The notes: generated from the letters alone by a model not told the origin. A stretch of 64,000 nucleotides of DNA from Candidatus Wildermuthbacteria bacterium (GCA_037445205.1 JBBIKX010000001.1:8767-72766), one strand, 5' to 3'; shown: positions 6,120 through 56,341, counted from the first letter of the stretch. Numbers and translations: made by a program.

Positions 6120-6120
6120 T

Positions 6121-7352: not shown

Positions 7353-7388
7353 CAAACAACCAACAATTAATAAATTATTTTAATTATT

Positions 7389-7730: not shown

Positions 7731-7738
7731 TCGCTTGT

Positions 7739-8161: not shown

Positions 8162-8175
8162 CATTTATTTATCTT

Positions 8176-9259: not shown

Positions 9260-9325
9260 TCCCCGCGTCCGGAGGAGCATTGACAGAAACGGTAAAAATC
9301 ATTATGAAAGAGTTTTAAAATATAA

Positions 9326-9532: not shown

Positions 9533-9553
9533 TAATTTTTACATACAGCCAAT

Positions 9554-12693: not shown

Positions 12694-13170
12694 ATGGAAA
12701 AAAAAGGTTTTAGAAAATTTAATCAAAAGCCGGCGGATGATTTTGTTTCCGAGTTTTTGGAAGTGAGGAGGGTGACAAAGGTTACAACCGGAGGGAAGAA
12801 ATTAAGATTTCGCGGCATTGTTGTTATAGGCGATAAGAAGGGAAAGGTTGGTTTGGGAGTGGCAAAGGGAAAAGATGTCGCCCAGGCGATTGAAAAAGCA
12901 GAAGCATCGGCAAGAAAAAATATAATTGATGTGCCCATCGTTGAGGGAACCATACCGCACGAAGTTATGGCAAAATTCGGCGCGGCAGTTATTCTTTTAA
13001 GACCCCAAAGAAAAGGAAGGGGGTTGGTTGCGGGCGGAACAGTGAGGGTTATTTGTCAGCTTGCAGGCATTAAAAACATTTCTTCAAAAACCCTTGGAAC
13101 AACAAGAAACAAGCTGAATAACGCCCGGGCAACTCTTAGAGCGATAAAGCAATTAAGGATAAAAAAGTAG
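12694..13170 (+). CDS. rpsE: 30S ribosomal protein S5
   Basis: 158 aa; followed directly by L15 (no L30). Confidence 0.93.
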   Translation: MEKKGFRKFNQKPADDFVSEFLEVRRVTKVTTGGKKLRFRGIVVIGDKKGKVGLGVAKGKDVAQAIEKAEASARKNIIDVPIVEGTIPHEVMAKFGAAVILLRPQRKGRGLVAGGTVRVICQLAGIKNISSKTLGTTRNKLNNARATLRAIKQLRIKK

Positions 13171-34286: not shown

Positions 34287-35540
34287 ATGAGGCAATCGCA
34301 ATTATTTTATAAAACAGAAAAAGTTTTGCCGGACAAAAAAGAGGCGATATCCCATGAGCTTTTAAAAAAAGCCGGCTTTATAAACCAATTGGCTTCAGGG
34401 CTTTATAGTTTATTGCCGCTGGGGTTTTTAGTCCATAAAAAAATTGAAAATATCATTCGCGAAGAAATGAAGAATATCGGCGCCCAAGAAGTATTTTTGC
34501 CCGCCCTGCAGCCAAAAGAAATTTGGGAAAAGACAAAAAGATGGAATACTATTGATCCTCCGCTCTTTAAGCTAAAAGACAGGCACCAAAAAGAATTTGC
34601 CCTTGGGTCTACGCATGAGGAAGTAATCAGCGATCTTGCGCGCCTTAAAATTAAATCTTACCGAGATTTGCCGGCGGCGCTTTTTCAGATTCAAACAAAA
34701 TTCAGAAACGAATTAAGATTTTCCGGGGGTCTTTTAAGGGCCAGAGAGTTTGTTATGAAAGATCTTTACAGCTTCCATCGAGATAAAGAAGATTTTGAGA
34801 AATATTATAAAAAGGCTATGGGCGCCTATCTTAAAATTTTTAAGCGATGCGGACTTAGGGCGGTTGTAACAGAAGCTTCGGGACAGGGATTTACAAAATC
34901 CGCTACTCACGAATTTCAGATTTTAACGCCGGCCGGCGAAGATAAAATAATTTTTTGCAAAAATTGTGCTTTTTCTCAAAATCAAGAAATCGCCCGGCAA
35001 AATGAAGGAGAAAAATGTTTAAATTGCAATAAGGGCGTTTTAGAGCTTAAGAGGGGAATAGAGGTGGGAAACATTTTTCCTTTGGAAGATAAGTATTCCA
35101 ATGATTTTGACCTTTATTTTGTTGATAAAGACAATAAAAAAAAGCCCGTTATTATGGGATGTTATGGAATCGGACTGGGAAGGTTGATGGCCGCCGCTGT
35201 TGAGATAAACTGCGATAAAAAAGGAATTGTCTGGCCAAAAGAGATAGCGCCCTACAGCGTGCATTTGCTTGCCATAGATTTAAAAGATAAAAAAGTTTTT
35301 CATCAGGCGGAAAGTTTTTATCAAAGTTTACAAGGCGCGGGTATGGGGGTATTATATGACGACAGACCGCAGACAAGCGCAGGAGAGAAATTTTTTGAAT
35401 CAGATTTGATAGGGATACCCAAAAGAATTGTTATCAGCAAAAAAACGCTGGGCGGGAATAAAATAGAATTAAAAGAGCGAAAGAGCGACAATTTGAAACT
35501 GATCAGCCGGAAACAGGCGTTAGGAGAATTAAAATTATGA
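34287..35540 (+). CDS. proS: Prolyl-tRNA synthetase (short form without editing insertion)
   Basis: 417 aa; class II aaRS motifs. Confidence 0.9.
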   Translation: MRQSQLFYKTEKVLPDKKEAISHELLKKAGFINQLASGLYSLLPLGFLVHKKIENIIREEMKNIGAQEVFLPALQPKEIWEKTKRWNTIDPPLFKLKDRHQKEFALGSTHEEVISDLARLKIKSYRDLPAALFQIQTKFRNELRFSGGLLRAREFVMKDLYSFHRDKEDFEKYYKKAMGAYLKIFKRCGLRAVVTEASGQGFTKSATHEFQILTPAGEDKIIFCKNCAFSQNQEIARQNEGEKCLNCNKGVLELKRGIEVGNIFPLEDKYSNDFDLYFVDKDNKKKPVIMGCYGIGLGRLMAAAVEINCDKKGIVWPKEIAPYSVHLLAIDLKDKKVFHQAESFYQSLQGAGMGVLYDDRPQTSAGEKFFESDLIGIPKRIVISKKTLGGNKIELKERKSDNLKLISRKQALGELKL

Positions 35541-36604
35541 TAAAAAATTTATTTTCAAACTTTGGAAAAGATATTGCCATAGATCTGGGTACGGCCAATA
35601 CGCTGGTTTATGTGAAAGGAGAGGGGATAGTAATTCGGGAACCCTCGGTTGTGGCGCTCAACCAAAAAACTGGAAAAATTTTGGCAATTGGACAAGAGGC
35701 AAAGAAAATGATCGGCCGCACGCCTTCCCATATTTTGGCAATCAAACCGCTAAGGAATGGCGTCATATCCGATTTTGAAGTGGCAGAGCAGATGTTAAGG
35801 TATTTTATTCAGAAATCATATAAAAGGAATATTGTTTTTCCAAGGCCCCGAATTATTATTGGCATTCCATGCGGGCTGACAGACGTAGAAAGAAGGGCAG
35901 TCAGAGATGCCGCAAAAAATACCGGAGCAAAAAGCGTATTCTTGGTGGAACAGCCGATGGCCAGCGCAATCGGCGCAAGGCTGCCCGTTAACGACCCCGG
36001 AGGAAATTTTGTTGTTGACATTGGGGGAGGCACTACTGAAATAGCCGTTATATCTCTTGGCGGGATAGTTCTTTCCAAGAGCTTGAAAATCGCGGGAGAT
36101 AAATTAAACGACGATATCATCAATTATGTCCAAGAAGAATATCGTCTTTTGATAGGGGAAAGAACCGCAGAGCAGATAAAAATGCATCTTGGAAGCGCTT
36201 GCCATGTAAAAGAAAAAGAAGGCGCTCCCGTAAAAAAGGAATTGCCAATGAGGGGGCGAAATCTTATTACCGGCCTTCCCGAAGAAGTAATTATTACGCA
36301 AGATGACGTGCGCAGGTCTCTTGAGAAATCAATAAAAGAGGTTGTTATGGCAGTAAAGGATACAATCGAGGCAACCCCTCCCGAGCTTGTTTCCGATATT
36401 ATGACTAAAAATATTTATCTCTCAGGAGGAGGAGCGCTTTTGAAGGGAATAGATGTTTTGATATCAAAGGAAACGAGGATTCCGACAAAAATTGTGGAAG
36501 ATCCCTTAACTGCGGTTGTGAGAGGTGCGGGCATGGTTTTGGAAAATCTTGAGATATTCAAAGATGTTTTAACCCAGCCCCAAGAAGTTCAGATTCCGCA
36601 ATAA
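35537..36604 (+). CDS. mreB: Rod shape-determining protein MreB/Mbl (paralog 2)
   Basis: 355 aa; IAIDLGTANTLVYV. Confidence 0.9.
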   Translation: MIKNLFSNFGKDIAIDLGTANTLVYVKGEGIVIREPSVVALNQKTGKILAIGQEAKKMIGRTPSHILAIKPLRNGVISDFEVAEQMLRYFIQKSYKRNIVFPRPRIIIGIPCGLTDVERRAVRDAAKNTGAKSVFLVEQPMASAIGARLPVNDPGGNFVVDIGGGTTEIAVISLGGIVLSKSLKIAGDKLNDDIINYVQEEYRLLIGERTAEQIKMHLGSACHVKEKEGAPVKKELPMRGRNLITGLPEEVIITQDDVRRSLEKSIKEVVMAVKDTIEATPPELVSDIMTKNIYLSGGGALLKGIDVLISKETRIPTKIVEDPLTAVVRGAGMVLENLEIFKDVLTQPQEVQIPQ

Positions 36605-39305: not shown

Positions 39306-40373
39306 ATGAAAATTTCTGATTTAAATTTTAGTAATTTCAATAGACAAATTAAATTTTCAATGAAAGCAATACTAAGCGATTTTAAATATTTCTATTTATC
39401 GATTTTTTTCTTTGGAATTCTTTTGTTTTTCATTCCTGAAATTTGTAGCGCTAATTTCCTTATAGGAGGATTTTTTATGTATAGTTTCTCTTTGTTGGCG
39501 CCCGTTATTTTCACGGGCGTTTGGGCCATAGAAGCCTTAACTATCAAGAATAAATTAGGGGGGACGCCACAAAAAGCACTATTTACTGCTTTAGTGGTAA
39601 ATTTGGCCACCAGCCTATCGGGCTTTGTTTTGGTTAAAAAAAACTTCTTGGCGGAATACACCCTATATAACGAATCTCTTACATTAATGATTTTTTTCCT
39701 TCTATCTGTTTTTGTTGAAATGTTAATGTTGCATTTTTGCTATAGAGAAGAATCTTGGCATAAAGTAATTATTGCTAGCTTTTTAATGAATCTGAAATCT
39801 TACTTTTTTTTAGCGTTTTTCTTGATAGGAGATTTTACAATCATAGGCGGGGCTATTATTTTAGTTATTGTCGTCCCCTATTTTTTCACAAAAGCTTTTA
39901 GGATGTTAGCCCCGGACAGAGAGTTTTTAAAATTTTTTAAAATAAGATCAGGCATCTTAATTCATTTCCTTTCCATTGTTCTAATCGGTTTGGTGTTTAT
40001 AGGAACCATAAAGGCGATAGATAAAGCGTTTCTTAAGCAAAGAAGAGAGGTGATAAAAGAGCATGAGGTAATGTCTAACATGCTTCAGATAAGCTCCAAG
40101 GCAGAATTGATCTATGCATACAAAGGAAGTTATGAATCATTAAATTGCGACTATGACGAAGAAATAAAAAGTGCTTGCAAGAATATTGAAAAGAAGACAG
40201 GCGCCAGGCTCACTATTCATACATCTGAAAACAGATATTGCGCCTATATTAAATTAATTTATTCTGAAAAATGGTATTGCGCAGATAATATTTCTGGACT
40301 TATCCCTGGGAAAATTAATATTAATCCCTCTATTTTGGGGTATTGTGATGGTAAGACTTTTATTTGTCCATAA
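39306..40373 (+). CDS. Polytopic membrane protein with Cys-rich C-terminal extracytoplasmic domain (island 1 cargo)
   Basis: 355 aa; 6-8 TM then a about 100-aa domain with 8 Cys. Confidence 0.7.
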   Translation: MKISDLNFSNFNRQIKFSMKAILSDFKYFYLSIFFFGILLFFIPEICSANFLIGGFFMYSFSLLAPVIFTGVWAIEALTIKNKLGGTPQKALFTALVVNLATSLSGFVLVKKNFLAEYTLYNESLTLMIFFLLSVFVEMLMLHFCYREESWHKVIIASFLMNLKSYFFLAFFLIGDFTIIGGAIILVIVVPYFFTKAFRMLAPDREFLKFFKIRSGILIHFLSIVLIGLVFIGTIKAIDKAFLKQRREVIKEHEVMSNMLQISSKAELIYAYKGSYESLNCDYDEEIKSACKNIEKKTGARLTIHTSENRYCAYIKLIYSEKWYCADNISGLIPGKININPSILGYCDGKTFICP

Positions 40374-40464
40374 ATATTAGCTTATTTGTAAGAATTAGAT
40401 GTGTTGTCCACAATTTTTTAGAGTAAAAATAATTGATTAATTTTTCCATCGGTATCAGATTATT

Positions 40465-40483
40465 AATCCCCTTGGGTCCGCAA
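40465..40483 (+). repeat. Direct repeat copy 2 of tRNA-Asp 3' end; putative attR of island 1 / attL of island 2
   Basis: Perfect 19-nt match to 39235-39253; the GC-rich block starts immediately after. Confidence 0.7.
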
Positions 40484-40503
40484 CGATACAAATTTCTTAC
40501 CTT

Positions 40504-40531
40504 AAAGCCGCGCTCCAGCGTGGCTTTTTTT
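40504..40531 (+). terminator. Intrinsic terminator (AAAGCC GCGCT..AGCGT GGCTTT plus T7)
   Basis: GC-rich hairpin and TTTTTTT directly after the repeat. Confidence 0.55.
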
Positions 40532-40589
40532 GGTTGAAATTTTTTTTGATTCTGATAGATTGAAAAAATAACCAAAAGGAGGTGAGACA

Positions 40590-41588
40590 GTGTCTTGCGA
40601 TACAGCCGTTATCGTGAATGTGCAGGCGGGCGCGGGAATGACTCGCTGGAAGTTGGCGCATCTTATGCGCCAGTTAAACCGCATTCTTTCTGTGCCCAAG
40701 AGTTGTGTCTGGCTGACTCGGGAAACCGGCGAGAGCAGCGCCACATCCCTGGCATCTTTTGCCCAAAGCAGAGGGGCCAAAGCAGTGATTGTCTTTGGCG
40801 GAGACGGCACGGTTCATCAGGCAGTAAACGGCCTGAAACTGCCCGATCCTTCAATCTCTGTTGGCATTGTGCCCTGCGGTACGGCCAACGTGGTTGCTTC
40901 CTGCCTTGGAATGCCAAGAAATGTCAAAGCGGCGCTGGAAGTCATAAGGGCCGGAATGACAAGAAAGATCGATCTGGGAATCCTGGAGGGAGATGGCCTT
41001 CCAAGATACGCGGTTTCCACGCTAAGCGTGGGACTTGACGCGATGATAAACGAACTGGCGCATCGTGTTAAGCCCCTGTTTCGGAAATACCATCTGCCAT
41101 CCATCTTGGGCTACATTCCGCCTCTTCTTAGATACACTCTTAATGAAGTTCCGCTCTACGATGTAGCTGTCAAAAAGGATGGATTGGTTTTTTGCGAAAG
41201 GATATCCTTTCTGGCAGTAACAAACACTCCATGGTATGGAGGCGGATTGGTGGACAGAACTGCCAAGCTTGACGACGGGCTGTTTAACATGATATGCGCC
41301 AGAAAGATCAGGTCCCGCGATCTTCCCTGGTGGATGTTTCAGATGTGGCAGGGAAATCACATCTATTATCCCAAGGTTTTTCTGCCCTGCTCTTCGTTTT
41401 CAGGATTAAGCATAAGTTCTGACTTTCCCTTGCCCGCGCAGATTGACGGACAGATTCTGCCCGCCCGGAAGAACATCGCAATCTCTGTCGTTCCCCGCCT
41501 CCTGCAGGTTTTCGCACCTTTGCCCCAACCAGAAAGAACAAAGCATTCTGGTTGGGGTTGTTTTTTTGATATGTCCAGGTTCAGATAG
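40590..41588 (+). CDS. Lipid kinase of the YegS/BmrU/DgkB family (diacylglycerol-kinase catalytic domain)
   Basis: 332 aa, GTG start 8 nt after AGGAGGTG; VIVFGGDGTVHQAVNGL (GGDG) and VTNTPWYGGGL; about 57% GC. Confidence 0.8.
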   Translation: MSCDTAVIVNVQAGAGMTRWKLAHLMRQLNRILSVPKSCVWLTRETGESSATSLASFAQSRGAKAVIVFGGDGTVHQAVNGLKLPDPSISVGIVPCGTANVVASCLGMPRNVKAALEVIRAGMTRKIDLGILEGDGLPRYAVSTLSVGLDAMINELAHRVKPLFRKYHLPSILGYIPPLLRYTLNEVPLYDVAVKKDGLVFCERISFLAVTNTPWYGGGLVDRTAKLDDGLFNMICARKIRSRDLPWWMFQMWQGNHIYYPKVFLPCSSFSGLSISSDFPLPAQIDGQILPARKNIAISVVPRLLQVFAPLPQPERTKHSGWGCFFDMSRFR

Positions 41589-41647
41589 ATATTGACCAAA
41601 ATATTCTTTTATGATATAATTTGGATATCCTAAGGAGGTGATGCGTG

Positions 41648-41815
41648 ATGAAGGCGGGTATAGTGATTTTCCGGCATACACAAGTAGAAACGCTGCAGGC
41701 GACGGTTAACGCGTTTCTCAAGGTTCACGCTCCACATATGGAGAACCTTGAGCATCAGCTGGTAGTGACTCCAGACGGCACTATCGTCTTGACCCTGCTT
41801 TATCGGGCTAAGTAG
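41648..41815 (+). CDS. Small GC-rich hypothetical protein (55 aa)
   Basis: Manual translation MKAGIVIFRHTQVETLQATVNAFLKVHAPHMENLEHQLVVTPDGTIVLTLLYRAK; TAAGGAGGTG SD 6 nt upstream; below ORF-track cutoff. Confidence 0.5.
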   Translation: MKAGIVIFRHTQVETLQATVNAFLKVHAPHMENLEHQLVVTPDGTIVLTLLYRAK

Positions 41816-41837
41816 GGTTCGTAAGGAGGGAGGAACG

Positions 41838-42101
41838 ATGCGTAAGCTCTTTGCGGCGATTGTCGGACTCTACCGTCGGCTCTGGATGATTGAGCCCCGC
41901 CGTTTCAAACGGGGACAAATCATCCAGTTCGAAGACTGGCGCGATGGCATTAGAGTTGCCAAAGCCAGATACCTGGTTCTCGGCAATACACCCTCCGAGA
42001 AGAGGTACGTCCTGGAGGGTGTTGGGCCCGGCAACAAGGGGAGGCGCGAGCGCCTTCGCTTCCGCTGGGTTGACAAACACGCACATTTGGTGCGCGGCTG
42101 A
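41838..42101 (+). CDS. GC-rich hypothetical basic protein (87 aa)
   Basis: GTAAGGAGGGAGG SD; no known domain. Confidence 0.55.
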   Translation: MRKLFAAIVGLYRRLWMIEPRRFKRGQIIQFEDWRDGIRVAKARYLVLGNTPSEKRYVLEGVGPGNKGRRERLRFRWVDKHAHLVRG

Positions 42102-42111
42102 AATGCCTGTT

Positions 42112-42155
42112 CCGCCCGGGACTAAGGAGGAGTTCCGGGCGGTTGTTGTTTTTTG
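42112..42155 (+). terminator. Intrinsic terminator (CCGCCCGG/CCGGGCGG plus TTGTTGTTTTTTG)
   Basis: 8-bp GC stem, long loop, U-tract after the 87-aa ORF. Confidence 0.6.
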
Positions 42156-42204
42156 ATGAAGTTTCTGGTATCGTATCAAGTATCGCACATTGGGAGGTGG
42201 AACG

Positions 42205-42348
42205 GTGCACAAATGGGTAATCTTTGCGGTAGTGGTGATCCCAAGCATTCTCATCGGTTCCCTTATCTGCCTTTTCCAAGGAAAGGGCAGAAGAGTGTGG
42301 TCCTTCGCTAAGGGGAGAGTCTTTGCTTGGGCGGAAACGGATTGGTGA
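42205..42348 (+). CDS. Tiny hydrophobic membrane peptide (47 aa), GTG start
   Basis: VHKWVIFAVVVIPSILIGSLICLFQGKGRRVWSFAKGRVFAWAETDW; GGGAGGTGG SD 5 nt upstream; hairpin AACCGGC...GCCGGTT downstream. Confidence 0.4.
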   Translation: MHKWVIFAVVVIPSILIGSLICLFQGKGRRVWSFAKGRVFAWAETDW

Positions 42349-42352
42349 ACAC

Positions 42353-42369
42353 AATCCTCTTGGCACTTG
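42353..42369 (+). repeat. Degenerate third copy of the tRNA-Asp 3' repeat (AATCCTCTTGGCACTTG, 11/17 match) at the right edge of the GC-rich island
   Basis: Aligned by eye to AATCCCCTTGGGTCCGC; sits where GC-rich DNA reverts to AT-rich. Confidence 0.3.
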
Positions 42370-42439
42370 TTAACCGGCGCATCTTCTGATGGGCCGGTTC
42401 ATCTTTTAACAAAAAATGCTCCATTTTTTGATTTGATTT

Positions 42440-43519
42440 TTGTTTGTTTTTGAATTAGAATTAATATATAAAATGGATTTAAAAAGCATTAAAAAGAAAG
42501 CAAAAAAGGAGATTGAATCGGCAAAAGATTCTGTTGCGCTAAAGCATATTTTTCAAGATTTTTTCGGCAAAAAGGGCGAGATTGCCGTCATTTTAAGCTC
42601 TCTTAAAAATCTTCCCCAAAAAGAAAGAAAGGACAAGGGAAAAATTATAAATGAAGTAAAAAAAGAGGTTCTGGAAATGATTGCAAAAAAAGAAAATAAT
42701 TTGAAAAAAATTGAGGCGGCTTTGGACGCAAAAGAGGAGTGGATTGATATAAGCTTTCCCTCAAAAAAAATTCCTCTGGGACATCTTCACCCCCTTACCC
42801 AAGCCAGAAGAAAAACAGAGGAAATTTTTGAAAAACTTGGATTTTCTGTGATTGAAGGACCCCAGATAGAAACAGAGTGGTATAATTTTGACGCCCTAAA
42901 CATTCCCAAAGATCATCCCGCGCGGGACAGGTGGGACACTTTTTGGCTCAGGGAGTCAGAAAGTCAAAAGTCAAAGGTCAAAAGTCAAAGGTTATTGTTA
43001 AGAACCCACACAAGTCCGGTTCAAATCCGCTATATGGAAAAAAACAATCCTCCCTTGCGGATTATTGTTCCAGGCAGAATATTCAGATACGAGGCGACAG
43101 ACGCTTCTCATGAAATAAACTTTTACCAGCTGGAAGGATTAATGGTTGATTCAAAAGTAACCCTTGCCGACTTTAAAGGAGTGATGGAAAAATTTTTCCA
43201 GATGTTTTTTGGCGATGAGGCCAAGATCCGGCTAAGGCCCAGCTATTTTCCCTTTACCGAACCGAGCGTTGAAATTGATATTAGCTGCCGGATATGCAAA
43301 CAAGAGGGATGCAGCGCTTGCGGCCGGAAGGGCTGGGTTGAAATAGCGGGCGCAGGCATGGTTCACCCAAATGTTTTTAAAGCAGCCAACCTTAACCCTA
43401 AAAATTGGCAGGGATTTGCGTTTGGAATAGGTCTTGATAGGTTGGCTATGATGAAATACAGGATTAATGATATAAGATTGTTCTATGGGGGAGATCTGCG
43501 GTTTCTTGAGCAATTTTAA
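42440..43519 (+). CDS. pheS: Phenylalanyl-tRNA synthetase alpha subunit
   Basis: 359 aa; class II motifs; internal ESQKSKVKSQ insert encoded by a short tandem repeat. Confidence 0.93.
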   Translation: MFVFELELIYKMDLKSIKKKAKKEIESAKDSVALKHIFQDFFGKKGEIAVILSSLKNLPQKERKDKGKIINEVKKEVLEMIAKKENNLKKIEAALDAKEEWIDISFPSKKIPLGHLHPLTQARRKTEEIFEKLGFSVIEGPQIETEWYNFDALNIPKDHPARDRWDTFWLRESESQKSKVKSQRLLLRTHTSPVQIRYMEKNNPPLRIIVPGRIFRYEATDASHEINFYQLEGLMVDSKVTLADFKGVMEKFFQMFFGDEAKIRLRPSYFPFTEPSVEIDISCRICKQEGCSACGRKGWVEIAGAGMVHPNVFKAANLNPKNWQGFAFGIGLDRLAMMKYRINDIRLFYGGDLRFLEQF

Positions 43520-47561: not shown

Positions 47562-49058
47562 ATGAGCTATATTGTTAAAATAATATTTTTTTGGAAAAGA
47601 ATTTATTTGCTGATAATGATTATCTGTTTTTCTTTATTCGCAGAGTTTGCGTTGGCAGAAGAAATTAAACAAGAAATATATGTCCCCAAAATAGAAATAG
47701 GCGATGGAATTACTCATTTAGCCAGAAAAACAATAATTGAATTTATAAAAAGAGAGGGTATTGACCCCAGAATTACGGTTCCGCACTTGGTTTATATTGA
47801 GGATCGTCTTGCGATAGAAAAAGGAAAGAAAACTATTTATTTAAAAGATTTTTCGCCAATAAATTTTTCCAGTGAAGAAATATCTAGGGCGATAAATAAA
47901 GCGTTGCTGCTTAACGAAAAGCAGATTTTAAGCTTAGAGCACTACGCTCTGTCCGTAAGCGCATATTTTGACTTAATAGTTAATAATAAGTTGCGGTTTA
48001 ATATAAAAAAAATTTCCGATTATAATTTGCCCCAGATAACCGGATTAGGATATCGCTTTATTGTTTACAAAGACAATATTTTTTTATTAGACATAGAGAA
48101 AAAAATAATGATTTTAGATATAGCGAATTCTAAAACCCCGAAGTTAATTGCCGAATTTTCTCCACCCCCTGGGGCTCGATGTAATAATCTTGCCTCTCTA
48201 CAAGACAATTTGATCGCTCTTTTTTGCTGGAATTCTTTTTCCGAGAGAATAATCTATTTTCTCGAGGTAGACAATCCTTTTGATTTGAAAATTATTTCAG
48301 AGTATAAGTTCGGCAAGGGAAATCTTATGGGAAATGCCGCTATAAAAGATTCTTTGCTTTTTTTGAGCGATTATAATCTATTTGAGGCAATAGACGTAGG
48401 CGATATTAAAACACCAAAATTAATTTTTAAACATGAATTTGATGATAGCTTTGAGCCGGTGAATATAACAAAAAAAGATAATCTTTTAATAGTCGGCTAT
48501 GATAAAAACTCTCCCCAGATCTTATGGTTGTTTGATGCCAAAAATTTTGAAATAAAAGAATTAGAAATACAAAACGAGAAAGCGATAAAACATCGCTATT
48601 TTTGGAGAAGCAGGGAAGGAAAAAACTGGCTCTTGGGTTCGCCCAGTATTTATTATTATTTTCCTTCATTGCTATTTATCAACTCCAAGGATATTTCTTT
48701 GGGAAAAAATAGCGGAATCTTGAACGTTAAGCCCTTTGAATTTCAATGTCCTTTATTAGAAAATCCAATTTTTGACTATGATAGCAAAGATGATGTCGTA
48801 TATCTTTATGTTCGCAGCCGCTATTTGAGAGACCCGACAAACAATATAACAGAATGTTGTGATGAGAATCTTTATATTTTGGATTTTAATGCTATTGGAG
48901 AAGAGCCACTAAAAGAGATTATAAATATCGGAAAATCCCCAGTTCTATTTAAAAATATGAACCTACAAAAGAGTAGATTATTTACTGTAACCGACTCCTT
49001 AACGACTTCTTGGCAAAAACTGGAAATTTATCAATTAATAAAAACTATCCATCCTTGA
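47562..49058 (+). CDS. Secreted beta-propeller protein with LVIVD-like repeats
   Basis: 498 aa; N-terminal TM/signal; repeated ...D(I/V)xxxKTPKLI... blades. Confidence 0.7.
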   Translation: MSYIVKIIFFWKRIYLLIMIICFSLFAEFALAEEIKQEIYVPKIEIGDGITHLARKTIIEFIKREGIDPRITVPHLVYIEDRLAIEKGKKTIYLKDFSPINFSSEEISRAINKALLLNEKQILSLEHYALSVSAYFDLIVNNKLRFNIKKISDYNLPQITGLGYRFIVYKDNIFLLDIEKKIMILDIANSKTPKLIAEFSPPPGARCNNLASLQDNLIALFCWNSFSERIIYFLEVDNPFDLKIISEYKFGKGNLMGNAAIKDSLLFLSDYNLFEAIDVGDIKTPKLIFKHEFDDSFEPVNITKKDNLLIVGYDKNSPQILWLFDAKNFEIKELEIQNEKAIKHRYFWRSREGKNWLLGSPSIYYYFPSLLFINSKDISLGKNSGILNVKPFEFQCPLLENPIFDYDSKDDVVYLYVRSRYLRDPTNNITECCDENLYILDFNAIGEEPLKEIINIGKSPVLFKNMNLQKSRLFTVTDSLTTSWQKLEIYQLIKTIHP

Positions 49059-49163: not shown

Positions 49164-49364
49164 ATGAATTTCTCATCTTTTCCCAAAAAGATCCTTAATT
49201 ATTTCAAAGAGGTCAAAACAGAAACAAAAAAAGTCAATTGGCCTACAAAAAAAGAAGCGACTAAATACACCTTAATTGTTATTGCTGTTATTGTTGTTGT
49301 TTCTGTCTTTCTGGGCTTTTTGGACATTATTTTTACCCTTATTTTAGATAAATTCATTTTTTAA
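49164..49364 (+). CDS. secE: Preprotein translocase subunit SecE
   Basis: 66 aa; single C-terminal TM; precedes nusG. Confidence 0.85.
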   Translation: MNFSSFPKKILNYFKEVKTETKKVNWPTKKEATKYTLIVIAVIVVVSVFLGFLDIIFTLILDKFIF

Positions 49365-49367: not shown

Positions 49368-49913
49368 ATGCCCAAGCAACAATTGCCCGAACAGCGAAAA
49401 TGGTACGCAATCCACACATATTCGGGATATGAAGATGCGGTTTCAAGAAATCTCAAGCAGAGGATTGAGTCTTTGGGAATGGAAGATAAAATTTTCAGCG
49501 TTCTGGTTCCCAAAGAAAAAAAAATTAAAATTAAGAACGGAAAACGATATTCCATTGAAGAAAAAATTTATCCGGGATATGTTTTGGTAGAAATGATTGT
49601 CACAGACGATTCTTGGTATGTGGTCAGAAACACTCCCAATGTTACGGGATTCGTCGGCGCTGGCACTACGCCCGTGCCTCTTTCCGAAGAGGAAATATCG
49701 GTTCTGAAAAATAGGATGGAGGGAGAGACGCCCAAATACCAGATAAGTTTTAAAATAAGCGACCATGTAAAAATTATTGATGGCCCTTTCAAAGATTACG
49801 AAGGAAAGGTTTCAGAAATAAATCAAGACGAGGGAAAAATTAAGGTAATGATAAATCTATTTGGAAGAGATACGCCAGTTGAATTAGATTCCCTGCAAGC
49901 CAAAAAAATATGA
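49368..49913 (+). CDS. nusG: Transcription antitermination factor NusG
   Basis: 181 aa; NGN and KOW domains. Confidence 0.93.
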   Translation: MPKQQLPEQRKWYAIHTYSGYEDAVSRNLKQRIESLGMEDKIFSVLVPKEKKIKIKNGKRYSIEEKIYPGYVLVEMIVTDDSWYVVRNTPNVTGFVGAGTTPVPLSEEEISVLKNRMEGETPKYQISFKISDHVKIIDGPFKDYEGKVSEINQDEGKIKVMINLFGRDTPVELDSLQAKKI

Positions 49914-50006: not shown

Positions 50007-50429
50007 ATGAAAAAAATACAAACAAAAGTTAAACTCCATATCGCCGCCGCTCAGGCTAATCCCGCCCCTCCTATCGGTCCCGCCCTTGCGCAACACGGAA
50101 TAAACATCGCTGACTTTTGCCAGAAGTTTAATGCCGCAACTAAAAATCTGGCAGGTTATCAGATTCCTGTTGAAATATCAATATACGAGGACAGGACTTT
50201 TAATTTTAAAATAAAACAGCCCCTTGTCAGCGATCTTTTAAAAAAGGCAGCGGGCATTGAGAAAGGGTCGGGCGAGCCGAATAAAATTAAGGCTGGAATA
50301 ATCACCAAAGAGCAGTTAAAAGAGATTGCCCAGAAGAAATTAGACGATTTAAACACAAAAAACATTGATGCCGCAATGAAAATTATTGAAGGACAGGCAA
50401 GATCAATGGGAATTGAAATTAAAAATTAG
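50007..50429 (+). CDS. rplK: 50S ribosomal protein L11
   Basis: 140 aa; [14 protein letters not shown] motif. Confidence 0.95.
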
Positions 50430-50434
50430 TTTTT

Positions 50435-51265
50435 ATGACCCAGTTTGACGAGCAGTATAAACAAGCAATCTGGGAAGTAATGAACGGAGGTACGGAAATT
50501 TACAGCGCAAGACAGAAATGTCATACCAAAGCTTTTCCGGGCATAACCTTTAATTTAGACAAAGGATTTCCTCTGCTTACTTTGAGAAAAATTCCTGTTA
50601 AAATTTTTGTCGCTGAACAATTCTGGTTTTTGATGGGCGAAAAAGACCCCAAGGTTTTTTTAAAAAAATTTACTGCCATATGGGATGATTTTGCCGATCA
50701 AAATGGATTAGTTTTGGGCGCTTATGGCTATCGCTGGAGGAAGCATTTTGGGAAAGATCAAATAGCCAATTTGTTGAGCCTTCTTTCCCAGGATCCAAGT
50801 TCGCGTCACGGAGTTGTGGTGGCGTGGGATCCCTCAGACGACATCAGGACCCTTGATTCAAAAAAGAAAAACGTTCCCTGCCCCTATACTTTCACTGTTA
50901 ATATTATCGGCAATAAGCTTCATATTCATATTATTATAAGGTCAAACGATATGATTCTTGGCTGTCCTCACGATATTGCGGGATTTGCGCTTTTGCAAAG
51001 GATTTTGGCCGGAAAGCTGGGGGTAAAGACAGGAAAGCTTACTTGTTCCATCAGCAATGCCCACATTTACGATATTCATTACAATGCGGCATGGGAGATG
51101 CTTGAAAGAAAAAACAATCATCCCGAAATTATTTTGGACGCAGAAGAAAATTGGTTTGACAGGGCGGAGAAGGGAGATGAATCGCTTGCTCAAGAAATTA
51201 TAGATACCATTGCAAGACAATATAGCCCGATGAATCCCATTAAGGGCTTAAAAATTATTTTATAA
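50435..51265 (+). CDS. thyA: Thymidylate synthase (ThyA type)
   Basis: 276 aa; folate-dependent TS motifs. Confidence 0.93.
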   Translation: MTQFDEQYKQAIWEVMNGGTEIYSARQKCHTKAFPGITFNLDKGFPLLTLRKIPVKIFVAEQFWFLMGEKDPKVFLKKFTAIWDDFADQNGLVLGAYGYRWRKHFGKDQIANLLSLLSQDPSSRHGVVVAWDPSDDIRTLDSKKKNVPCPYTFTVNIIGNKLHIHIIIRSNDMILGCPHDIAGFALLQRILAGKLGVKTGKLTCSISNAHIYDIHYNAAWEMLERKNNHPEIILDAEENWFDRAEKGDESLAQEIIDTIARQYSPMNPIKGLKIIL

Positions 51266-51270
51266 ATTAT

Positions 51271-51777
51271 ATGAAAATAATTTTAGTAATGGCAATCACG
51301 CTTGATGGGAAAATTGCCAAGACAAAAGACCATTTTCCAAACTGGACGTCAAAGGAGGATAAAAACTTCTTTGCCAAAATTTCAAAAAAGCACAAGGTCG
51401 TCTTAATGGGAAAGAACACTTTTGATACCTTCAAAAAACCGCTCAAAGACAGATTAAATGTGGTTTTTACAAATAAAAAAAATCTGGCGAAGATAAAAAA
51501 TGTAATGTGGGTTTCGGGCAAAATAAGTCCGATTTTAAAAAAGCTGGAAAAGAGGGGATATAAATCGGCGGTTCTTGGCGGAGGAGCAATGTTGAACGCA
51601 GAGTTCTTAAAGGAAAAATTGATAGATGAGGTTATAGTCACAATCAATCCCAAAATCTTTGGGCGAGGGATATCTTTGTTTGAAGGAGATTTTGATATTG
51701 ATTTAAAACTTTTAAAAGTGGAAAATATTAATAAAGATACGATAGCTCTTCGTTATAGGCCGGTGTTTTGTAATTAA
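51271..51777 (+). CDS. folA: Dihydrofolate reductase
   Basis: 168 aa; MKIILVMAITLDGKIA N-terminus; adjacent to thyA. Confidence 0.85.
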   Translation: MKIILVMAITLDGKIAKTKDHFPNWTSKEDKNFFAKISKKHKVVLMGKNTFDTFKKPLKDRLNVVFTNKKNLAKIKNVMWVSGKISPILKKLEKRGYKSAVLGGGAMLNAEFLKEKLIDEVIVTINPKIFGRGISLFEGDFDIDLKLLKVENINKDTIALRYRPVFCN

Positions 51778-51786
51778 ATTAAAAAT

Positions 51787-52443
51787 ATGCCCCTATCAAA
51801 ACCTGAAATCATAAAATCCATCCAAGAAGAGAAAATTAAATTTGAACCGTCTCTTGATAAATTTCAGCTTCAGCCCCATTCCATTGATTTGCGGCTTGGT
51901 TGGAATTTTTATATACCAAAAAACTGGGCAATCACGGAAAAGGGAAGGGTTGGCGTAAGTATTGATTATTTGGACACGCAATCCCAAAAAGACAACTTTG
52001 ATTTAATCAAATTAAAACCCGGTCAGTATTTTGAAATTTTGCCAAAAGAATTCATTATTGCTTCGACAATGGAAAAGGTGGTTATAGAAGCCGATAAGCT
52101 AATGGCATTGTTGTATCCCAGAAGCTCTTTTACAAGAAAAGGGTTGTTCATTGCCAGCGGAATCGTTGATGTAAAATACAGCGGATATCTGGCTCTTTCA
52201 GTGATAAACAATACAGAAACCCAGATTATAAGGCTATATCCGGGCGAAAGAGTGTGCCAGCTGGTCTTTCATTTTTTAAGCTCTGCTTTGTCGCCAGAAG
52301 AGGCAATTAAGCACGGGATAAGCGATTCCAAATATTTAAAAGCGGCTCCTTATTCTCTTGAGGCAAAAAGCGACAATCAGGAAGAAATAGATCTAATCAG
52401 ATTTGGAAAGATTGGCGAATTGAAAGAAAAATTCAAATTATAA
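51787..52443 (+). CDS. dcd: dCTP deaminase
   Basis: 218 aa; dUTPase-like fold. Confidence 0.9.
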   Translation: MPLSKPEIIKSIQEEKIKFEPSLDKFQLQPHSIDLRLGWNFYIPKNWAITEKGRVGVSIDYLDTQSQKDNFDLIKLKPGQYFEILPKEFIIASTMEKVVIEADKLMALLYPRSSFTRKGLFIASGIVDVKYSGYLALSVINNTETQIIRLYPGERVCQLVFHFLSSALSPEEAIKHGISDSKYLKAAPYSLEAKSDNQEEIDLIRFGKIGELKEKFKL

Positions 52444-52449
52444 AAGCCG

Positions 52450-52908
52450 ATGGGAAAAGAAGGAATAAAATATCCCTATTTGCCGGAAGCAAGAGAAATA
52501 AAATTTGTTTCAGAAAAAAATATTTTTATCAGGGAGGCGAAGAAAATTTGCAAAAAGAAAGGATGCATTGCGCATCCAACAGGGGCGGTTTTGGTCAAAA
52601 AGAATAAAATCATAGGGAAGGGGACTAACGCCGCAAAAAAAATAAAAGATTGTCCAAGGGCTTTGAAAAAAAGCAAGACCGGCCAAGATTATCATTTATG
52701 CAAAAAAATTTGCCTGCAGGAAGGACACGCAGAAGCGATGGCGATTAAAAGCGCAAAAGAAAAAAAGGAGAAAATCAGAGGAGCAGATTTATATCTTTAT
52801 GGCCATTGGTGGTGCTGTAAAGATTGTTGGGATAAAATCATCAAAGAAGGGATAGGAGAGGTTTATTTAATTGAAAACGCTTTTGATAAATTTCATAAGC
52901 GAATATGA
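52450..52908 (+). CDS. Deoxycytidylate (dCMP) deaminase, CDA zinc family
   Basis: 152 aa; HAEAMAI and CCKDC zinc ligands. Confidence 0.8.
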   Translation: MGKEGIKYPYLPEAREIKFVSEKNIFIREAKKICKKKGCIAHPTGAVLVKKNKIIGKGTNAAKKIKDCPRALKKSKTGQDYHLCKKICLQEGHAEAMAIKSAKEKKEKIRGADLYLYGHWWCCKDCWDKIIKEGIGEVYLIENAFDKFHKRI

Positions 52909-53540
52909 AAAAAAATCCTTATCTTGGAAAATTCATAGTTTTTGAAGGGCTGGACGGGTCCGGACAAAGCACCCAAGCATCAAAACTGGTGGATTATTTC
53001 AATGAAAAAAACCAGATATTTAAATTTGGGCATACCGGAGCGCATCTTACCAAAGAGCCGACATCCGGAATTATTGGAGGATTAATCAGGGGCCAGCTAT
53101 CTTTTGACTGGAAATCTTCTCAAGAATGCCTCCAGCTTTTATTTGCGGCAGATCGGGCGTACCATCTAGAAAAGGAGATTTTGCCTCTTTTGGAAATGGG
53201 CGTAACGGTGGTTTGCGATCGTTATTTTTTTTCTTCTTGCGCCTTCGGGGCGCTGGAGGCCGATCAGGAATGGCTTTTAAAAATCAATGAAAAGTTTCTT
53301 TTGCCTGATTTGATATTCCTGCTTGCTGTTTCTCCCAAAATCTGCATTGAAAGAATAAAAAGAAATCGTTTTGAAATAAATCTTTTTGAAAACGAAGAAA
53401 TATTAAAAAATGTGTGGGAGAAATACTTGATATTGGCACATCAAAATAAAAACACGCATATTATAGACGGGGAACGGCCGATCAATGAGATTTTTGAGGA
53501 GATTAAAGAAATAACTGATAGGAAATTTAACCAACGATGA
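52905..53540 (+). CDS. tmk: Thymidylate kinase
   Basis: 211 aa; FIVFEGLDGSGQSTQ P-loop. Confidence 0.9.
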   Translation: MKKNPYLGKFIVFEGLDGSGQSTQASKLVDYFNEKNQIFKFGHTGAHLTKEPTSGIIGGLIRGQLSFDWKSSQECLQLLFAADRAYHLEKEILPLLEMGVTVVCDRYFFSSCAFGALEADQEWLLKINEKFLLPDLIFLLAVSPKICIERIKRNRFEINLFENEEILKNVWEKYLILAHQNKNTHIIDGERPINEIFEEIKEITDRKFNQR

Positions 53541-55024
53541 TAAATTCATCAAAAAAATATATTCCCGTCATCGGGCTTGAAATACATACGGAATTAAAAA
53601 CTAATTCCAAAATGTTTTGCGGGTGCAAAAACGATTCGCAGGAAAAAGAAGCGAATTTGAATATTTGTCCTGTTTGCATGGGTCATCCCGGCACTCTCCC
53701 CGTTATAAACAAAACAGCGATTCGTTTTGTCATAAAAACAGGGATTGCTCTGAATTGTAAAATTACAAAAGAGTCGCGATTTGAAAGAAAAAATTATTTT
53801 TATCCCGATCTTCCAAAAGGATATCAGATTTCTCAATACAAAGAGCCGTTTTGTTTTAATGGCTTTTTAAAAATAAATAATAAAAAAATAAGAATTAGAA
53901 GGGTTCATTTGGAAGAAGATACTGCCCGCCTGATACACTCCAAAAATGGATATTCGCTGATTGATTTCAACCGCGCCGGCATTCCTTTAATGGAGCTTGT
54001 AACGGAGCCGGACATAGAATCTTCTAAAGAGGCATCAGACTTCGCAAAAAAACTTCAGTTGATCCTGAGATATTTAAATGTTTCCAGCGCTGACATGGAA
54101 AAAGGGCAATTGAGAGTGGAGGCAAATATTTCATTAATAAACGCAAATTTTAAAGCAAAAAACGCAAAACTAGGAACAAAGGTGGAGATCAAAAATTTAA
54201 ATTCGTTTAGGGCAGTTGAGAGGGCGATAGAATATGAAATAGAAAGGCAAAAGGAGTTACTATTAAATGATGAGAGGGTGGCGCAGGAAACAAGAGGATG
54301 GGATCCTCAATCAGAAAGAACCTTTCCCCAGAGAGAAAAAGAAGAGGCGCATGATTACCGCTACTTTCCAGAGCCGGATTTGCCCCAGATTTATATAAAA
54401 AAAGACTATCTGGAGGCGATAAAAAAAGGAATTCCCGAACTTCCCGATCAAAAAATAAAAAGATTAAAAGAAGAATTTTTTGTTAACGAACAATCAGCCC
54501 AGATTCTTGTCTCTAACAGAGATTTAAGCGAGTATTTTGAAAAATCGGCAAGCGAGCTTTTAAGATGGTCAAAAGACAAAAGATTAGATCAAAAGAGCCA
54601 AAAAGAATTGATACAGAGCGCCGCCAACTATCTTTTGACAGATTTACTCGGCTGTCTTTCAGGGAAAGAATTTTCAGAAAAAGATTTTCCCATAACGCCT
54701 GAAAATTTCGGAGAGTTTATCGCTCTTGTCCGCGATAAAAAATTCACAAGCAAAATGGCAAAAATTCTTTTAGGAGAGATGTTTGATTCCGGCCAAGATC
54801 CCTCAACCATAATAAAAAAAAGAGGATTAATCCAGACGGACAACGAAGATGAGATTAAAAAAATAGTGCAAAAAATAATTTCATCAAATCCTCGGGCATT
54901 TGAAGATTATAAAAAAGGAAAAGAAAATGCTCTTCAATTCATGATTGGACAAATGATGAAAGAAACTAAAGGCACTATAAATCCCCAGATGGCAAAGAAA
55001 GCGTTGATTGATTTTTTAAAATAA
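53537..55024 (+). CDS. gatB: Asp/Glu-tRNA amidotransferase subunit B
   Basis: 495 aa; IGLEIHTELKT...MFCGC N-terminus. Confidence 0.95.
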   Translation: MINSSKKYIPVIGLEIHTELKTNSKMFCGCKNDSQEKEANLNICPVCMGHPGTLPVINKTAIRFVIKTGIALNCKITKESRFERKNYFYPDLPKGYQISQYKEPFCFNGFLKINNKKIRIRRVHLEEDTARLIHSKNGYSLIDFNRAGIPLMELVTEPDIESSKEASDFAKKLQLILRYLNVSSADMEKGQLRVEANISLINANFKAKNAKLGTKVEIKNLNSFRAVERAIEYEIERQKELLLNDERVAQETRGWDPQSERTFPQREKEEAHDYRYFPEPDLPQIYIKKDYLEAIKKGIPELPDQKIKRLKEEFFVNEQSAQILVSNRDLSEYFEKSASELLRWSKDKRLDQKSQKELIQSAANYLLTDLLGCLSGKEFSEKDFPITPENFGEFIALVRDKKFTSKMAKILLGEMFDSGQDPSTIIKKRGLIQTDNEDEIKKIVQKIISSNPRAFEDYKKGKENALQFMIGQMMKETKGTINPQMAKKALIDFLK

Positions 55025-55135
55025 TATATAATACTTAAAATCCAGAATAAGGAGGTGGTCGCCGGGATACAGTCCAAAGAGGGCGAGGGGCGTTTTCGGA
55101 AGCAAAACCGGATCTTTCTTGCGAAAGGAGCATCG

Positions 55136-55333
55136 ATGCCAGCAGTAAATCTTGTTAACGTGGCGAGGTCATTGCCGGACGAAGAGGCGGAGAGGCTTTT
55201 GCTCATCGAGCAAAGCAATCCTGATTGCCTCAGGGCGCTTTTTGCGGTCGTTCTGAGCGCCGGAACGCTGGAAAAAGCTGTTCCTCTGATCCAACGAGTT
55301 CTTGCTGGCGCACCCTTGTTTCCGGGCGGATGA
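55136..55333 (+). CDS. GC-rich small hypothetical protein (65 aa), cassette C
   Basis: MPAVNLVNVARSLPDEEAERLLLIEQSNP...; AAAGGAG SD 7 nt upstream; second AAGGAGGTGG at 55050; shares locus with the miaA 3' end on the opposite strand. Confidence 0.45.
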   Translation: MPAVNLVNVARSLPDEEAERLLLIEQSNPDCLRALFAVVLSAGTLEKAVPLIQRVLAGAPLFPGG

Positions 55334-56341
55334 AACTGGATGGGGCTCCCTTCGGGAGCCCCCTTGTTTTGTTAAAAAAGTATTTATTATTTTTCTGGCT
55401 TTTTTTTTATCCCCAACCCAATTTACTCTTTTGTCTTTTTTAAACCAGGTTATTTGTCTTTTGGCGTAACTTTCAATTGCTTTTTGGAGCATTCCGACCA
55501 TTTCATCATAGCCAATTTTTTTTTGAAGATAGCAAGCAATATATCTGTATTCCAATCCAAATTCTTCAAGCCGTTTCCAGGAAACGCCGTCTTTTCTTAG
55601 CGCTCTGACCTCTTTTATCATCCCCTGATTTAATCTTTTGTATAGCCGTTTTCTGATTAAATTTTTTAGCTCTTTTTTTTCTTTCTTGATGCCGATAATG
55701 AGCAAATCAAACAATTGGCTTTTTTTTATGACGGGTACCGGTTTTTTTGATTTCAAAACTATTTCAATTGCCCGGATTAATCTGCGGGGATTTTTTTTAT
55801 CAATAATTTTTGCCCGCCGCGGGTCCAGTTTTTTTAACATTTGATAAAGCTGGTTTGGCAATTTTTTTTCCAGTTTTTTCCTTAATTTCCAGTCCGGCGG
55901 AATTTTTGGGATGACGATTCCGTCAACGACTGATTGAATATAGAATCCGGTGCCGCCGCAAAGAATGGGCAGCTTATTTCTCTTATGGATTTCCCTTATT
56001 TTTTTTAATGCCATTTTTTGATACTGGGCGACCGTAAATTTCCTTTTTGGAGAAGCAACATCCAAAAGATGATGTTGGATGCCTCTATAAAGATATGACT
56101 GTTTTGAAATTTGAGATTTAGGACTTGGAGTTTGTTTAGAAATTAGAAATTTGGAATTAGAAATTTTATCTCGTGGAACCTTCCCGGTTCCGATATCCAT
56201 TTTGCGATAAACCTGACGGGAATCGGCCGAAATCACCTCTCCGTTAAAATTTTTTGCCAGTGCTACCGCCAAATCGCTTTTTCCCGAAGCAGTGGGTCCA
56301 AGAATAACTAACAATATTTTTCGGTCCGTTTTTTTTGACAT
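55169..56341 (-). CDS. miaA: tRNA dimethylallyltransferase with about 75-aa aberrant C-terminal extension read through a GC-rich cassette
   Basis: 390 aa; ILGPTASGKSDLA P-loop; canonical C-terminus (...RQITWFKK...) reached about 75 aa before the stop. Confidence 0.88.
   Translation of the reverse strand: MSKKTDRKILLVILGPTASGKSDLAVALAKNFNGEVISADSRQVYRKMDIGTGKVPRDKISNSKFLISKQTPSPKSQISKQSYLYRGIQHHLLDVASPKRKFTVAQYQKMALKKIREIHKRNKLPILCGGTGFYIQSVVDGIVIPKIPPDWKLRKKLEKKLPNQLYQMLKKLDPRRAKIIDKKNPRRLIRAIEIVLKSKKPVPVIKKSQLFDLLIIGIKKEKKELKNLIRKRLYKRLNQGMIKEVRALRKDGVSWKRLEEFGLEYRYIACYLQKKIGYDEMVGMLQKAIESYAKRQITWFKKDKRVNWVGDKKKARKIINTFLTKQGGSRREPHPVSSARKQGCASKNSLDQRNSFFQRSGAQNDRKKRPEAIRIALLDEQKPLRLFVRQ
55342..55374 (+). 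terminator. Intrinsic terminator with UUCG tetraloop (GGGGCTCCC-TTCG-GGGAGCCCC plus CTTGTTTTGTT)
   Basis: 9-bp GC stem, TTCG loop, U-tract; lies inside the extended miaA reading frame on the other strand. Confidence 0.6.

Follow-up and report, generated by a model that had tools for sequence, protein, structure and literature searches.

The thyA locus and its distribution

A 64 kb stretch of DNA from Candidatus Wildermuthbacteria (GCA_037445205.1 JBBIKX010000001.1:8767-72766), hereafter the window, carries directly behind the ribosomal protein gene rplK a block of five nucleotide-metabolism genes led by a member of the ThyA (thymidylate synthase, TS) superfamily. All genes of the block lie on the plus strand. 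The rplK gene encodes a full-length L11 (50007-50429; TIGR01632, 189 bits against a cutoff of 141.85, with both Pfam L11 domains) and is followed, after a junction of only 5 bp (50430-50434), by the ThyA-superfamily gene (50435-51265; PF00303, 170 bits), a dihydrofolate reductase (DHFR)-like reductase of the RibD_C/DHFR clan (51271-51777; PF01872, 87.5 bits, and PF00186, 53 bits), a Dcd-family gene with the Dcd/Dut fold (51787-52443; PF22769, 102 bits, and TIGR02274, 102 bits against a cutoff of 92.8), a deaminase of the cytidine deaminase (CDA) fold (52450-52908; PF00383, 50.7 bits) and the dTMP kinase gene tmk (52905-53540; TIGR00041, 151.6 bits against a cutoff of 83.25). A preliminary description of this DNA had reported five contiguous genes for dTTP synthesis after rplK; their positions and families stand as given, but the names thyA and dcd were overstated, and thyA is used below only as a gene label. 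The last gene of the apparent operon is gatB (53537-55024; NF004012, 613 bits), which is also the conserved downstream neighbour in relatives. The intergenic spacers from rplK through gatB are 5, 5, 9, 6, -4 and -4 bp, and no convincing plus-strand terminator was found upstream of position 55342; the genes from rplK to gatB therefore look like one operon.

The block is widespread in the Candidate Phyla Radiation (CPR). Database searches with the ThyA homologue yielded 2197 matches, and among the best 120 of these, from which identities and residue counts were taken, identity ranged from 58 to 85% and every relative with a named source was a CPR member (Falkow-, Kuenen-, Uhr-, Moran- and Doudnabacteria, and the "Patescibacteria group"). 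A scan of GTDB with one genome per species gave 407 ThyA relatives, and synteny was counted in the best 80 of these loci, whose genes were annotated by BLASTP against reference proteins and which represent many CPR lineages, including Microgenomates-type ones (Davies-, Woese- and Shapirobacteria). Beside thyA, a Dcd-like gene was present in 77, a DHFR gene in 76 and a deaminase gene in 72 of the 80 loci, with all three together in 69. A tmk gene was found in 54 loci, often fused to a thymidine kinase gene, rplK in 44, and gatB and the serine hydroxymethyltransferase (SHMT) gene in 30 each. What had been taken for an unusually complete block in a reduced genome is thus the standard CPR arrangement. 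Its accessory content varies: an extra AAA_17 P-loop kinase is encoded in about 29 of the 80 loci (for example, L005, 12792-16125), and many CPR clusters have the Tmk-thymidine kinase fusion and sometimes a nucleoside deoxyribosyltransferase, while the window cluster has a plain Tmk alone. Several metagenome-assembled genomes that contain the CPR operon (L018, L023, L025 and other "binchicken"/SRP co-assemblies) are titled "uncultured Gammaproteobacteria" or "Candidatus Saccharibacteria", and these titles look like placeholders or errors.

The preliminary description had also noted a likeness to phage nucleotide-metabolism modules, and this likeness was confirmed, specifically to modules of the Xp12 type, [NTPase]-ThyA(Asp)-deaminase-DHFR, where Asp denotes the active-site residue discussed below. 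The gene set is indeed like the ThyA-deaminase-DHFR modules of Bradleyvirinae phages, which might suggest that the five genes were recently acquired from a phage. Such an origin is nevertheless extremely improbable. The nucleotide genes group with their counterparts in hundreds of CPR genomes, at 58-85% identity and with the same order and chromosomal neighbours, whereas no phage exceeded 36%; in addition, only three of the 2.9 million IMG/VR contigs compared carried relatives (47-53% identity, in a different gene context), against 407 genomes in GTDB. The closest phage ThyAs were those of Xanthomonas phage Mallos, whose enzyme is 64% identical to those of Xp12 and PaMx74, Janthinobacterium phage Donnerlittchen and Ruegeria phage Tedan, and a PHROGs scan returned generic family names only. 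The GC content of the module is 0.375, compared with 0.387 for the window, with no compositional break at the module, and no integrase gene, phage gene or other prophage sign was detected near it; the flanking genes are the housekeeping genes gyrB, pheST, gatCA, miaA, miaB and thrS. The block is a housekeeping operon of CPR chromosomes, inherited vertically and devoted to thymidine-nucleotide supply, and not a phage island.

Active-site residues, partner enzymes and a proposed route to thymidylate

Residues of the ThyA homologue were mapped by HMMER against solved TS structures and by MAFFT with E. coli ThyA, T4 gp42 and phage enzymes. The protein keeps Cys149, Arg169, Asp172, His210 and Tyr212, the invariant equivalents of E. 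coli Cys146, Arg166, Asp169, His207 and Tyr209, together with Glu61, Trp83 and Tyr97. Three positions differ from the canonical enzyme: Asn177 of E. coli is replaced by Asp180 (50972-50974), within L-G-C-P-H-D-I-A, where T4 gp42 has Asp179; His147 is replaced by Pro150 (codon 50882), beside the catalytic Cys149 (50879); and Leu143 is replaced by Asn146 (codon 50870), within K-N-V-P-C-P, the same as in Xp12. One automatic alignment placed Leu at position 143 in the CPR ThyAs and was discarded, since HMMER, local-pair MAFFT and a Cys-anchored ungapped alignment all gave Asn.

Asp at the Asn177 position was found in 120 of 120 close homologues and at 81 of 81 loci, and about 125 of 150 representatives of clusters at 50% identity were of this Asp type. 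Canonical His147/Asn177 proteins made up 20 of the 150 representatives, were the lowest scoring and all had Leu143. A neighbor-joining (NJ) tree of ThyA, computed without support values, placed the window and Xp12 enzymes in a 110-leaf clade that is entirely of the Asp type, with the 20 canonical proteins outside, and only one of the 110 proteins in this clade had His147. Of the 12 residues around the substrate C5 position, the window enzyme agrees with Xp12 in 10 and with E. coli in 6, and by BLAST it scored 147 bits against the Xp12 enzyme and 109 bits against E. coli ThyA. An AlphaFold2 model (pLDDT 91.5) has the full-length TS fold, with a Foldseek TM-score of about 0.8 to TS structures, and the C-terminus, which ends in ...IKGLKIIL, is TS-like, whereas T4 gp42 is truncated there.

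The substitution N177D in E. coli TS, or N229D in the L. casei enzyme, converts TS into a dCMP methylase, and homologues from cytosine-modified phage contigs are told apart best by positions 177 and 147 (PMC8670742). The Xp12 homologue and five of seven other Asp-type homologues have been found to produce 5-methyl-dCMP in vivo (bioRxiv 10.1101/2024.12.05.627091). An acidic residue at position 143 leads to a hydroxymethyl product, and D169N gives a 5-hydroxy-dCMP synthase (PMC13326640); the window ThyA bears neither mark, its Asn146 being non-acidic and its Asp172 retained. The full TS fold, the TS-like C-terminus and the conserved DHFR and SHMT genes point to reductive methylation and not to hydroxymethylation. 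By its residues, the protein would be a dCMP C5-methyltransferase of the Xp12 type, and not a canonical dUMP synthase, an assignment that we hold, as part of the pathway set out below, with the same even confidence as the pathway itself. A literature search found no report linking CPR or Patescibacteria to Asp-type ThyA, ThyX or 5-methyl nucleotides.

The module most similar in logic is that of phages Xp12 and PaMx74 (bioRxiv 10.1101/2024.12.05.627091; PMC8670742). The two share Asp, Pro and Asn at positions 177, 147 and 143, the K-N-V-P-C-P motif, the retained Asp169 and the full-length TS architecture; both have an adjacent RibD_C-type DHFR, with 27% identity (E=1e-9) between the CPR protein and the DHFR-like neighbour of the Xp12 ThyA homologue, and an adjacent CDA-fold deaminase; and a dNTP pyrophosphatase function, predicted in the case of the CPR, is encoded nearby. 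In contrast to the phage module, the CPR block is cellular, chromosomal and radiation-wide, its ThyA is only about 31-35% identical, its deaminase belongs to another, CPR-specific subfamily, its pyrophosphatase candidate has the Dcd/Dut fold instead of being a MazG or HAD protein, and its operon includes Tmk, gatB and often SHMT. T4 is a more distant parallel. gp42 shares with the CPR ThyA an RSND motif as well as the Asp, and gp42 with the gp56 dCTPase follows the same logic of a dCTP to dCMP feed followed by C5 modification; however, gp42 has an acidic residue 143 and no TS C-terminal segment, while the CPR ThyA has Asn and a full C-terminus, and the T4 hydroxymethylation step needs no DHFR. 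gp56 was considered as a homologue of the Dcd-like protein and rejected, as it has the all-alpha dUTPase_2 fold and is unrelated to the CPR protein.

At the superfamily level, the CPR ThyA appears from these comparisons to sit with the phage dCMP methylases, while the window genes are nonetheless vertical CPR genes, and an ancient exchange between phages and a CPR ancestor is possible. The same triad, Asp-type ThyA with a deaminase and a RibD_C-type DHFR, turns up again in phages and on further contigs of cellular origin. A phage-like JGI contig (L100, 3300072492; 153-9628) encodes an Asp-type ThyA with Val147, a RibD_C-type DHFR and a dCMP-deaminase homologue, together with DNA polymerase A and a Vsr-type endonuclease; Vsr, a T:G mismatch enzyme, is tied to the deamination of 5-methylcytosine (5mC), and its presence beside the module is a suggestive hint of a 5mC pathway. 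A cellular contig from Logan (L101, SRR3184710; 6001-9924), with infA, rpsM, rpsK and rpsD nearby, has the order ThyA(Asp, Val147)-deaminase-nucleoside deoxyribosyltransferase-DHFR-FolC. Its deaminase has the CPR-type motif Y-L-Y-G-H-W-W-C-C, and the module therefore reaches beyond the ThyA clade of the window.

Among the partner enzymes, the Dcd-like protein departs most clearly from its family. Glu138 is the catalytic residue of E. coli Dcd and, by the accepted mechanism, is essential for deamination; we found nothing in the literature on a Dcd E138A variant. In the window protein this position is Ser138 (codon 52198), as in E. coli Dut, and HMMER alignments against Dcd structures in the PDB gave the same replacement. 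Glu was found at the equivalent position in none of 78 cluster copies and none of 120 homologues. Pro or Ser takes its place in 77 of the 78 copies, the majority of CPR copies having Pro, and the 120 homologues all have Pro, Ser or Ala. The equivalents of Ser111, Arg115 and Asp128 are kept, and with Dcd, the bifunctional DCD-DUT enzymes and archaeal Dcd-like dUTPases the protein shares the match to the Dcd hidden Markov model, the R-S-S motif, the Arg115/Asp128 pair and a C-terminal K-Y; it differs from this superfamily in the change of Glu138 to Ser or Pro in all CPR copies. As the Glu138 equivalent is missing, dCTP deamination is not expected of this protein, which is probably a dUTP/dCTP pyrophosphatase and not a deaminase. 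The claim that the block covers both routes to dUMP is therefore doubtful, and so is the reading of its ThyA, with a dCMP-specific Asp at the Asn177 position, as a plain thymidylate synthase.

The deaminase has the zinc-binding motifs HAE (residues 93-95) and CKDC (123-126); the C-x-x-C motif is present in 73 of 74 CPR copies, and H-x-E is conserved. The subfamily to which it belongs is CPR-specific and is marked by the motif Y-L-Y-G-H-W-W-C and an insert rich in Cys. Against the ComEB equivalog TIGR02571 it scored 29 bits (cutoff 219), and its best PDB match was the dCMP deaminase 2hvv (E=2e-4). Tmk is canonical, with its equivalog model above the cutoff. The conserved CPR operon, the absence of rplA from the locus, the Asp-type ThyA and the Glu-less Dcd homologue are near certain.

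From the gene content, synteny, residue signatures and distribution, all of which are directly observed, we infer the substrate and product of the ThyA homologue and what the deaminase and the Dcd-like protein do. We propose, with a probability of roughly one half, the route dCMP to 5-methyl-dCMP to dTMP to dTDP. ThyA(Asp180) would methylate dCMP with methylene-tetrahydrofolate, giving 5-methyl-dCMP and dihydrofolate, and the folate would be recycled by the adjacent DHFR-like reductase; the clusters of relatives also encode SHMT. The adjacent CDA-fold deaminase would then turn the 5-methyl-dC nucleotide into a dT nucleotide, and Tmk would phosphorylate dTMP, while the Dcd-like protein would probably remove dUTP and/or feed dCMP as a dUTP/dCTP pyrophosphatase. 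By analogy, and at the same even odds, this would be the equivalent in cells of a route that has been proposed for Xp12-type phages, in which the deaminases beside Asp-type homologues favour 5mC nucleotides and are the proposed makers of dT nucleotides (bioRxiv 10.1101/2024.12.05.627091).

The principal alternative is the canonical route, in which the Asp180 ThyA still methylates dUMP, the Dcd-like protein is a dUTPase, the deaminase is a dCMP deaminase, and DHFR and Tmk act as usual. The block does resemble the canonical ThyA-FolA(-GlyA) cycle of E. coli and B. subtilis in its families, its folate logic, its end product dTDP/dTTP and the conserved catalytic residues of ThyA. Every protein scores above the Pfam threshold of its canonical family, and ThyA exceeds the cutoff of TIGR03284 (122 bits against 108), while it scores 144 bits against NF002497 (cutoff 327); its overall fold and C-terminus are those of TS, two dUMP-producing enzymes beside a TS would make a coherent operon, and in the databases the homologues are uniformly labelled thymidylate synthase or dCTP deaminase. 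Several further points weigh against the dCMP route. The substrate assignment is transferred from residues of the E. coli, L. casei, T4 and Xp12-type enzymes at about 30-35% identity, and the ThyA homologue is about as similar to canonical ThyA (29-34%) as to the Xp12-type enzymes (31-34%), the NJ clade that unites it with the latter lacking support values. BLAST showed no similarity between the CPR deaminase and the 5mC-selective deaminases of Xp12-type phages, so that homology gives no ground for ascribing their selectivity to it; such selectivity is polyphyletic and not readable from sequence, and the characterised mSCD-B5 uses triphosphates and not monophosphates (bioRxiv 10.1101/2024.12.05.627091). 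Moreover, Dictyostelium Dcd2, which is reported to fall within a mostly CPR clade of Dcd, rescues an E. coli dcd mutant (PMC10733785), and a Dut-like pyrophosphatase that makes dUMP beside ThyA would suit the canonical pathway equally well.

The canonical route is still, in our opinion, unlikely, though it is the most serious of the alternatives. Every CPR copy examined has Asp at the Asn177 position, and, wherever tested, Asp at this residue shifts the preference to dCMP; to our knowledge, no natural dUMP-methylating TS has it. Pro147 and Asn143 co-vary with this Asp exactly as in Xp12, whereas the combination of His147 and Leu143, present in 20 of 20 Asn-type representatives, is almost never seen in the Asp type. 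The changes of N177/H147/L143 to Asp/Pro/Asn set the CPR block apart from the canonical cycle, as do the Dcd without Glu138 and the deaminase far below the ComEB cutoff.

A further alternative is that 5-methyl-dCMP serves chiefly for 5-methyl-dCTP, so that CPR DNA would contain 5mC introduced at the nucleotide level, in partial or full place of C as in phage Xp12. This could serve nuclease protection, alone or alongside dT supply, and would be compatible with the dCMP route. The ThyA signature is that of the Xp12/PaMx74-type enzymes, whose phages replace all C by 5mC, and the extra AAA_17 kinase of 29 of the 80 loci could phosphorylate a modified dNMP. We nonetheless consider modification of the DNA as the chief purpose improbable, as the window cluster has no such kinase but Tmk only, the deaminase and Tmk in the operon indicate a dT end product, and no report of global 5mC in CPR DNA was found in the literature; base modification is in any case not demonstrable from sequence.

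The Asp-type ThyA occurs in at least 400 species-level genomes of Parcubacteria- and Microgenomates-type lineages. We tentatively suggest, with less confidence than for the dCMP route itself, that much of the CPR has no dUMP-dependent TS and makes all its thymidylate by dCMP methylation followed by deamination of the 5-methyl-dC nucleotide; for a second TS, as for rplA below, our view covers the window and the short loci around the thyA genes of relatives. The formation of thymidylate from dUMP by ThyA or ThyX is regarded as universal in cells, and a methylate-then-deaminate route has so far been proposed only for 5mC phages such as Xp12. On the broader suggestion, a dUMP-independent pathway of this kind would for the first time be known from a cellular lineage. 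If the dCMP route is correct, a radiation that holds a large share of bacterial diversity would use another reaction order, one that avoids the dUMP/dUTP pool and would be attractive with minimal repair. A possible side effect would be a 5-methyl-dCTP pool that places nucleotide-derived 5mC in CPR DNA. Metabolic reconstructions of the CPR and the interpretation of 5mC signals in CPR DNA would then change, and the CPR would offer a cellular source of dCMP methylases, and possibly of 5mC-selective deaminases useful for methylome sequencing.

The rplK/thyA junction and ribosomal protein L1

Upstream of rplK, the window has secE (49164-49364, plus strand; PF00584, 70.8 bits, and TIGR00964, 62.6 bits) and nusG (49368-49913, plus strand; TIGR00922, 201 bits against a cutoff of 135.7). 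As the preliminary description stated, rplK is not followed by rplA-rplJ-rplL; the ThyA homologue begins 5 bp on, at the site where rplA lies in L1-bearing relatives. No gene for L1, L10 or L7/L12 was detected in the 64 kb by tblastn with the E. coli proteins (best E=1.5), nor one for L1 with eight queries, five of them from close CPR relatives (best E=0.10, with 19.5% identity). The accompanying statement that a universal order is broken after L11 held for the missing rplA, but the separation from rplJ-rplL is not special to this genome. Among the 44 GTDB loci that contain rplK, rplA sits between rplK and thyA in 18, for example in Falkowbacteria (L005, L030), in Doudnabacteria (L007, L044) and in L018 and L040, and in these L1-bearing CPR relatives rplA is followed by thyA and not by rplJ-rplL. 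As thyA follows rplA in the L1-bearing lineages, the rplJ-rplL break is old and shared. For this section of the radiation, the ancestral order is secE-nusG-rplK-rplA-thyA.

Loci without rplA fall into three sets. The first consists of the window and four relatives (L014, L015, L016 and L060), which are five species-level genomes with a rplK/thyA junction of 5-7 bp; in an NJ tree of nusG, rplK, thyA and dcd (810 columns, without support values) they form one clade beside an L1-bearing clade. The second is a large Paceibacteria-like clade (Taylor-, Colwellbacteria and others) in which thyA-DHFR-dcd lie on the opposite strand and converge on rplK, and the third is a single Portnoybacteria locus. 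The existence of CPR lineages without L1, to which the preliminary description had alluded, is published (OD1-L1; PMC5220378), and the Paceibacteria-like loci fit this OD1-L1 group. The window resembles the OD1-L1 group (Brown et al., 2015, cited in PMC5220378) in having no rplA after rplK, in belonging to the CPR and in the absence of L30. The window retains the order and orientation of the L1-bearing lineages minus rplA, whereas the OD1-L1-like loci are convergent. That the window set keeps the L1-bearing gene order and orientation and groups beside those lineages suggests a separate loss, and it is probable that rplA was cleanly removed between rplK and thyA in this clade, independently of OD1-L1. 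By analogy with that group, loss of L1 itself is the likely reason for the removal.

Alternatively, rplA may have moved elsewhere in the genomes of the window clade, with L1 retained in the ribosome. The visible sequence amounts to the 64 kb and about 9 kb upstream in locus L094, and the ribosomal clusters are evidently rearranged in this lineage, with rpoBC, rplJ and rplL also displaced. When the window was extended upstream through an exact match of the S7 protein to contig CAYLHA010000005.1 (GCA_964383555.1), rpoBC, rplJ and rplL were absent upstream of rpsL on that contig, where unrelated genes were found instead, and they therefore lie elsewhere. We consider relocation of rplA unlikely, however, since rplA directly follows rplK in 18 of 18 L1-bearing loci, the five genomes of the clade share the same clean junction, and genome-wide loss of L1 is already documented in the CPR. 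Removal of rplA from the window clade would be a further case, probably the second independent one, in which a near-universal ribosomal protein was lost, and the genomic states before and after it are both preserved among sister lineages. Elsewhere in the window, the genes for S5 (12694-13170) and, downstream, L15 (13174-13617) are 3 bp apart and no L30 gene separates them, in line with the known CPR-wide absence of L30.

Other features of the window

The remainder of the window has ordinary CPR housekeeping content, with the str, S10, spc and alpha ribosomal clusters starting at base 132 and with murA-like, mreB (two copies), holB, frr and proS-like genes. Between gatB and miaA lies a GC-rich segment of about 330 nt (55040-55372, plus strand) with a minimum free energy of -134 kcal/mol (z = -2.5), a promoter-like site at 55004-55032 and a strong terminator-like hairpin at 55342-55362. 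It matched no Rfam family and had no blastn match in relatives, and is a candidate for an unclassified structured RNA. The miaA open reading frame (ORF) runs antisense across this segment and has 390 aa, compared with 304 aa in a relative; given the antisense overlap and the excess length, its C-terminal end may be spurious.

An ORF of 498 aa (47562-49058, plus strand), which has a hydrophobic N-terminus and matches no family in Pfam or NCBIfam, lies between gyrB and secE, and is absent in the relative L003/L015, where secE directly follows gyrB. The region 40000-43000 has a GC content of 0.46, compared with the mean of 0.387, and contains a diacylglycerol-kinase-like gene (40590-41588) and, on both strands, several overlapping ORFs that match no family; this patch may be foreign DNA. 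A small ORF of 85-90 aa without a family, located between fusA and tuf (2777-3049, plus strand), is conserved in L094 (11881-12138). The two MreB paralogues (30672-31679 and 35537-36604) lie 4 kb apart and match PF06723 with 438 and 449 bits.

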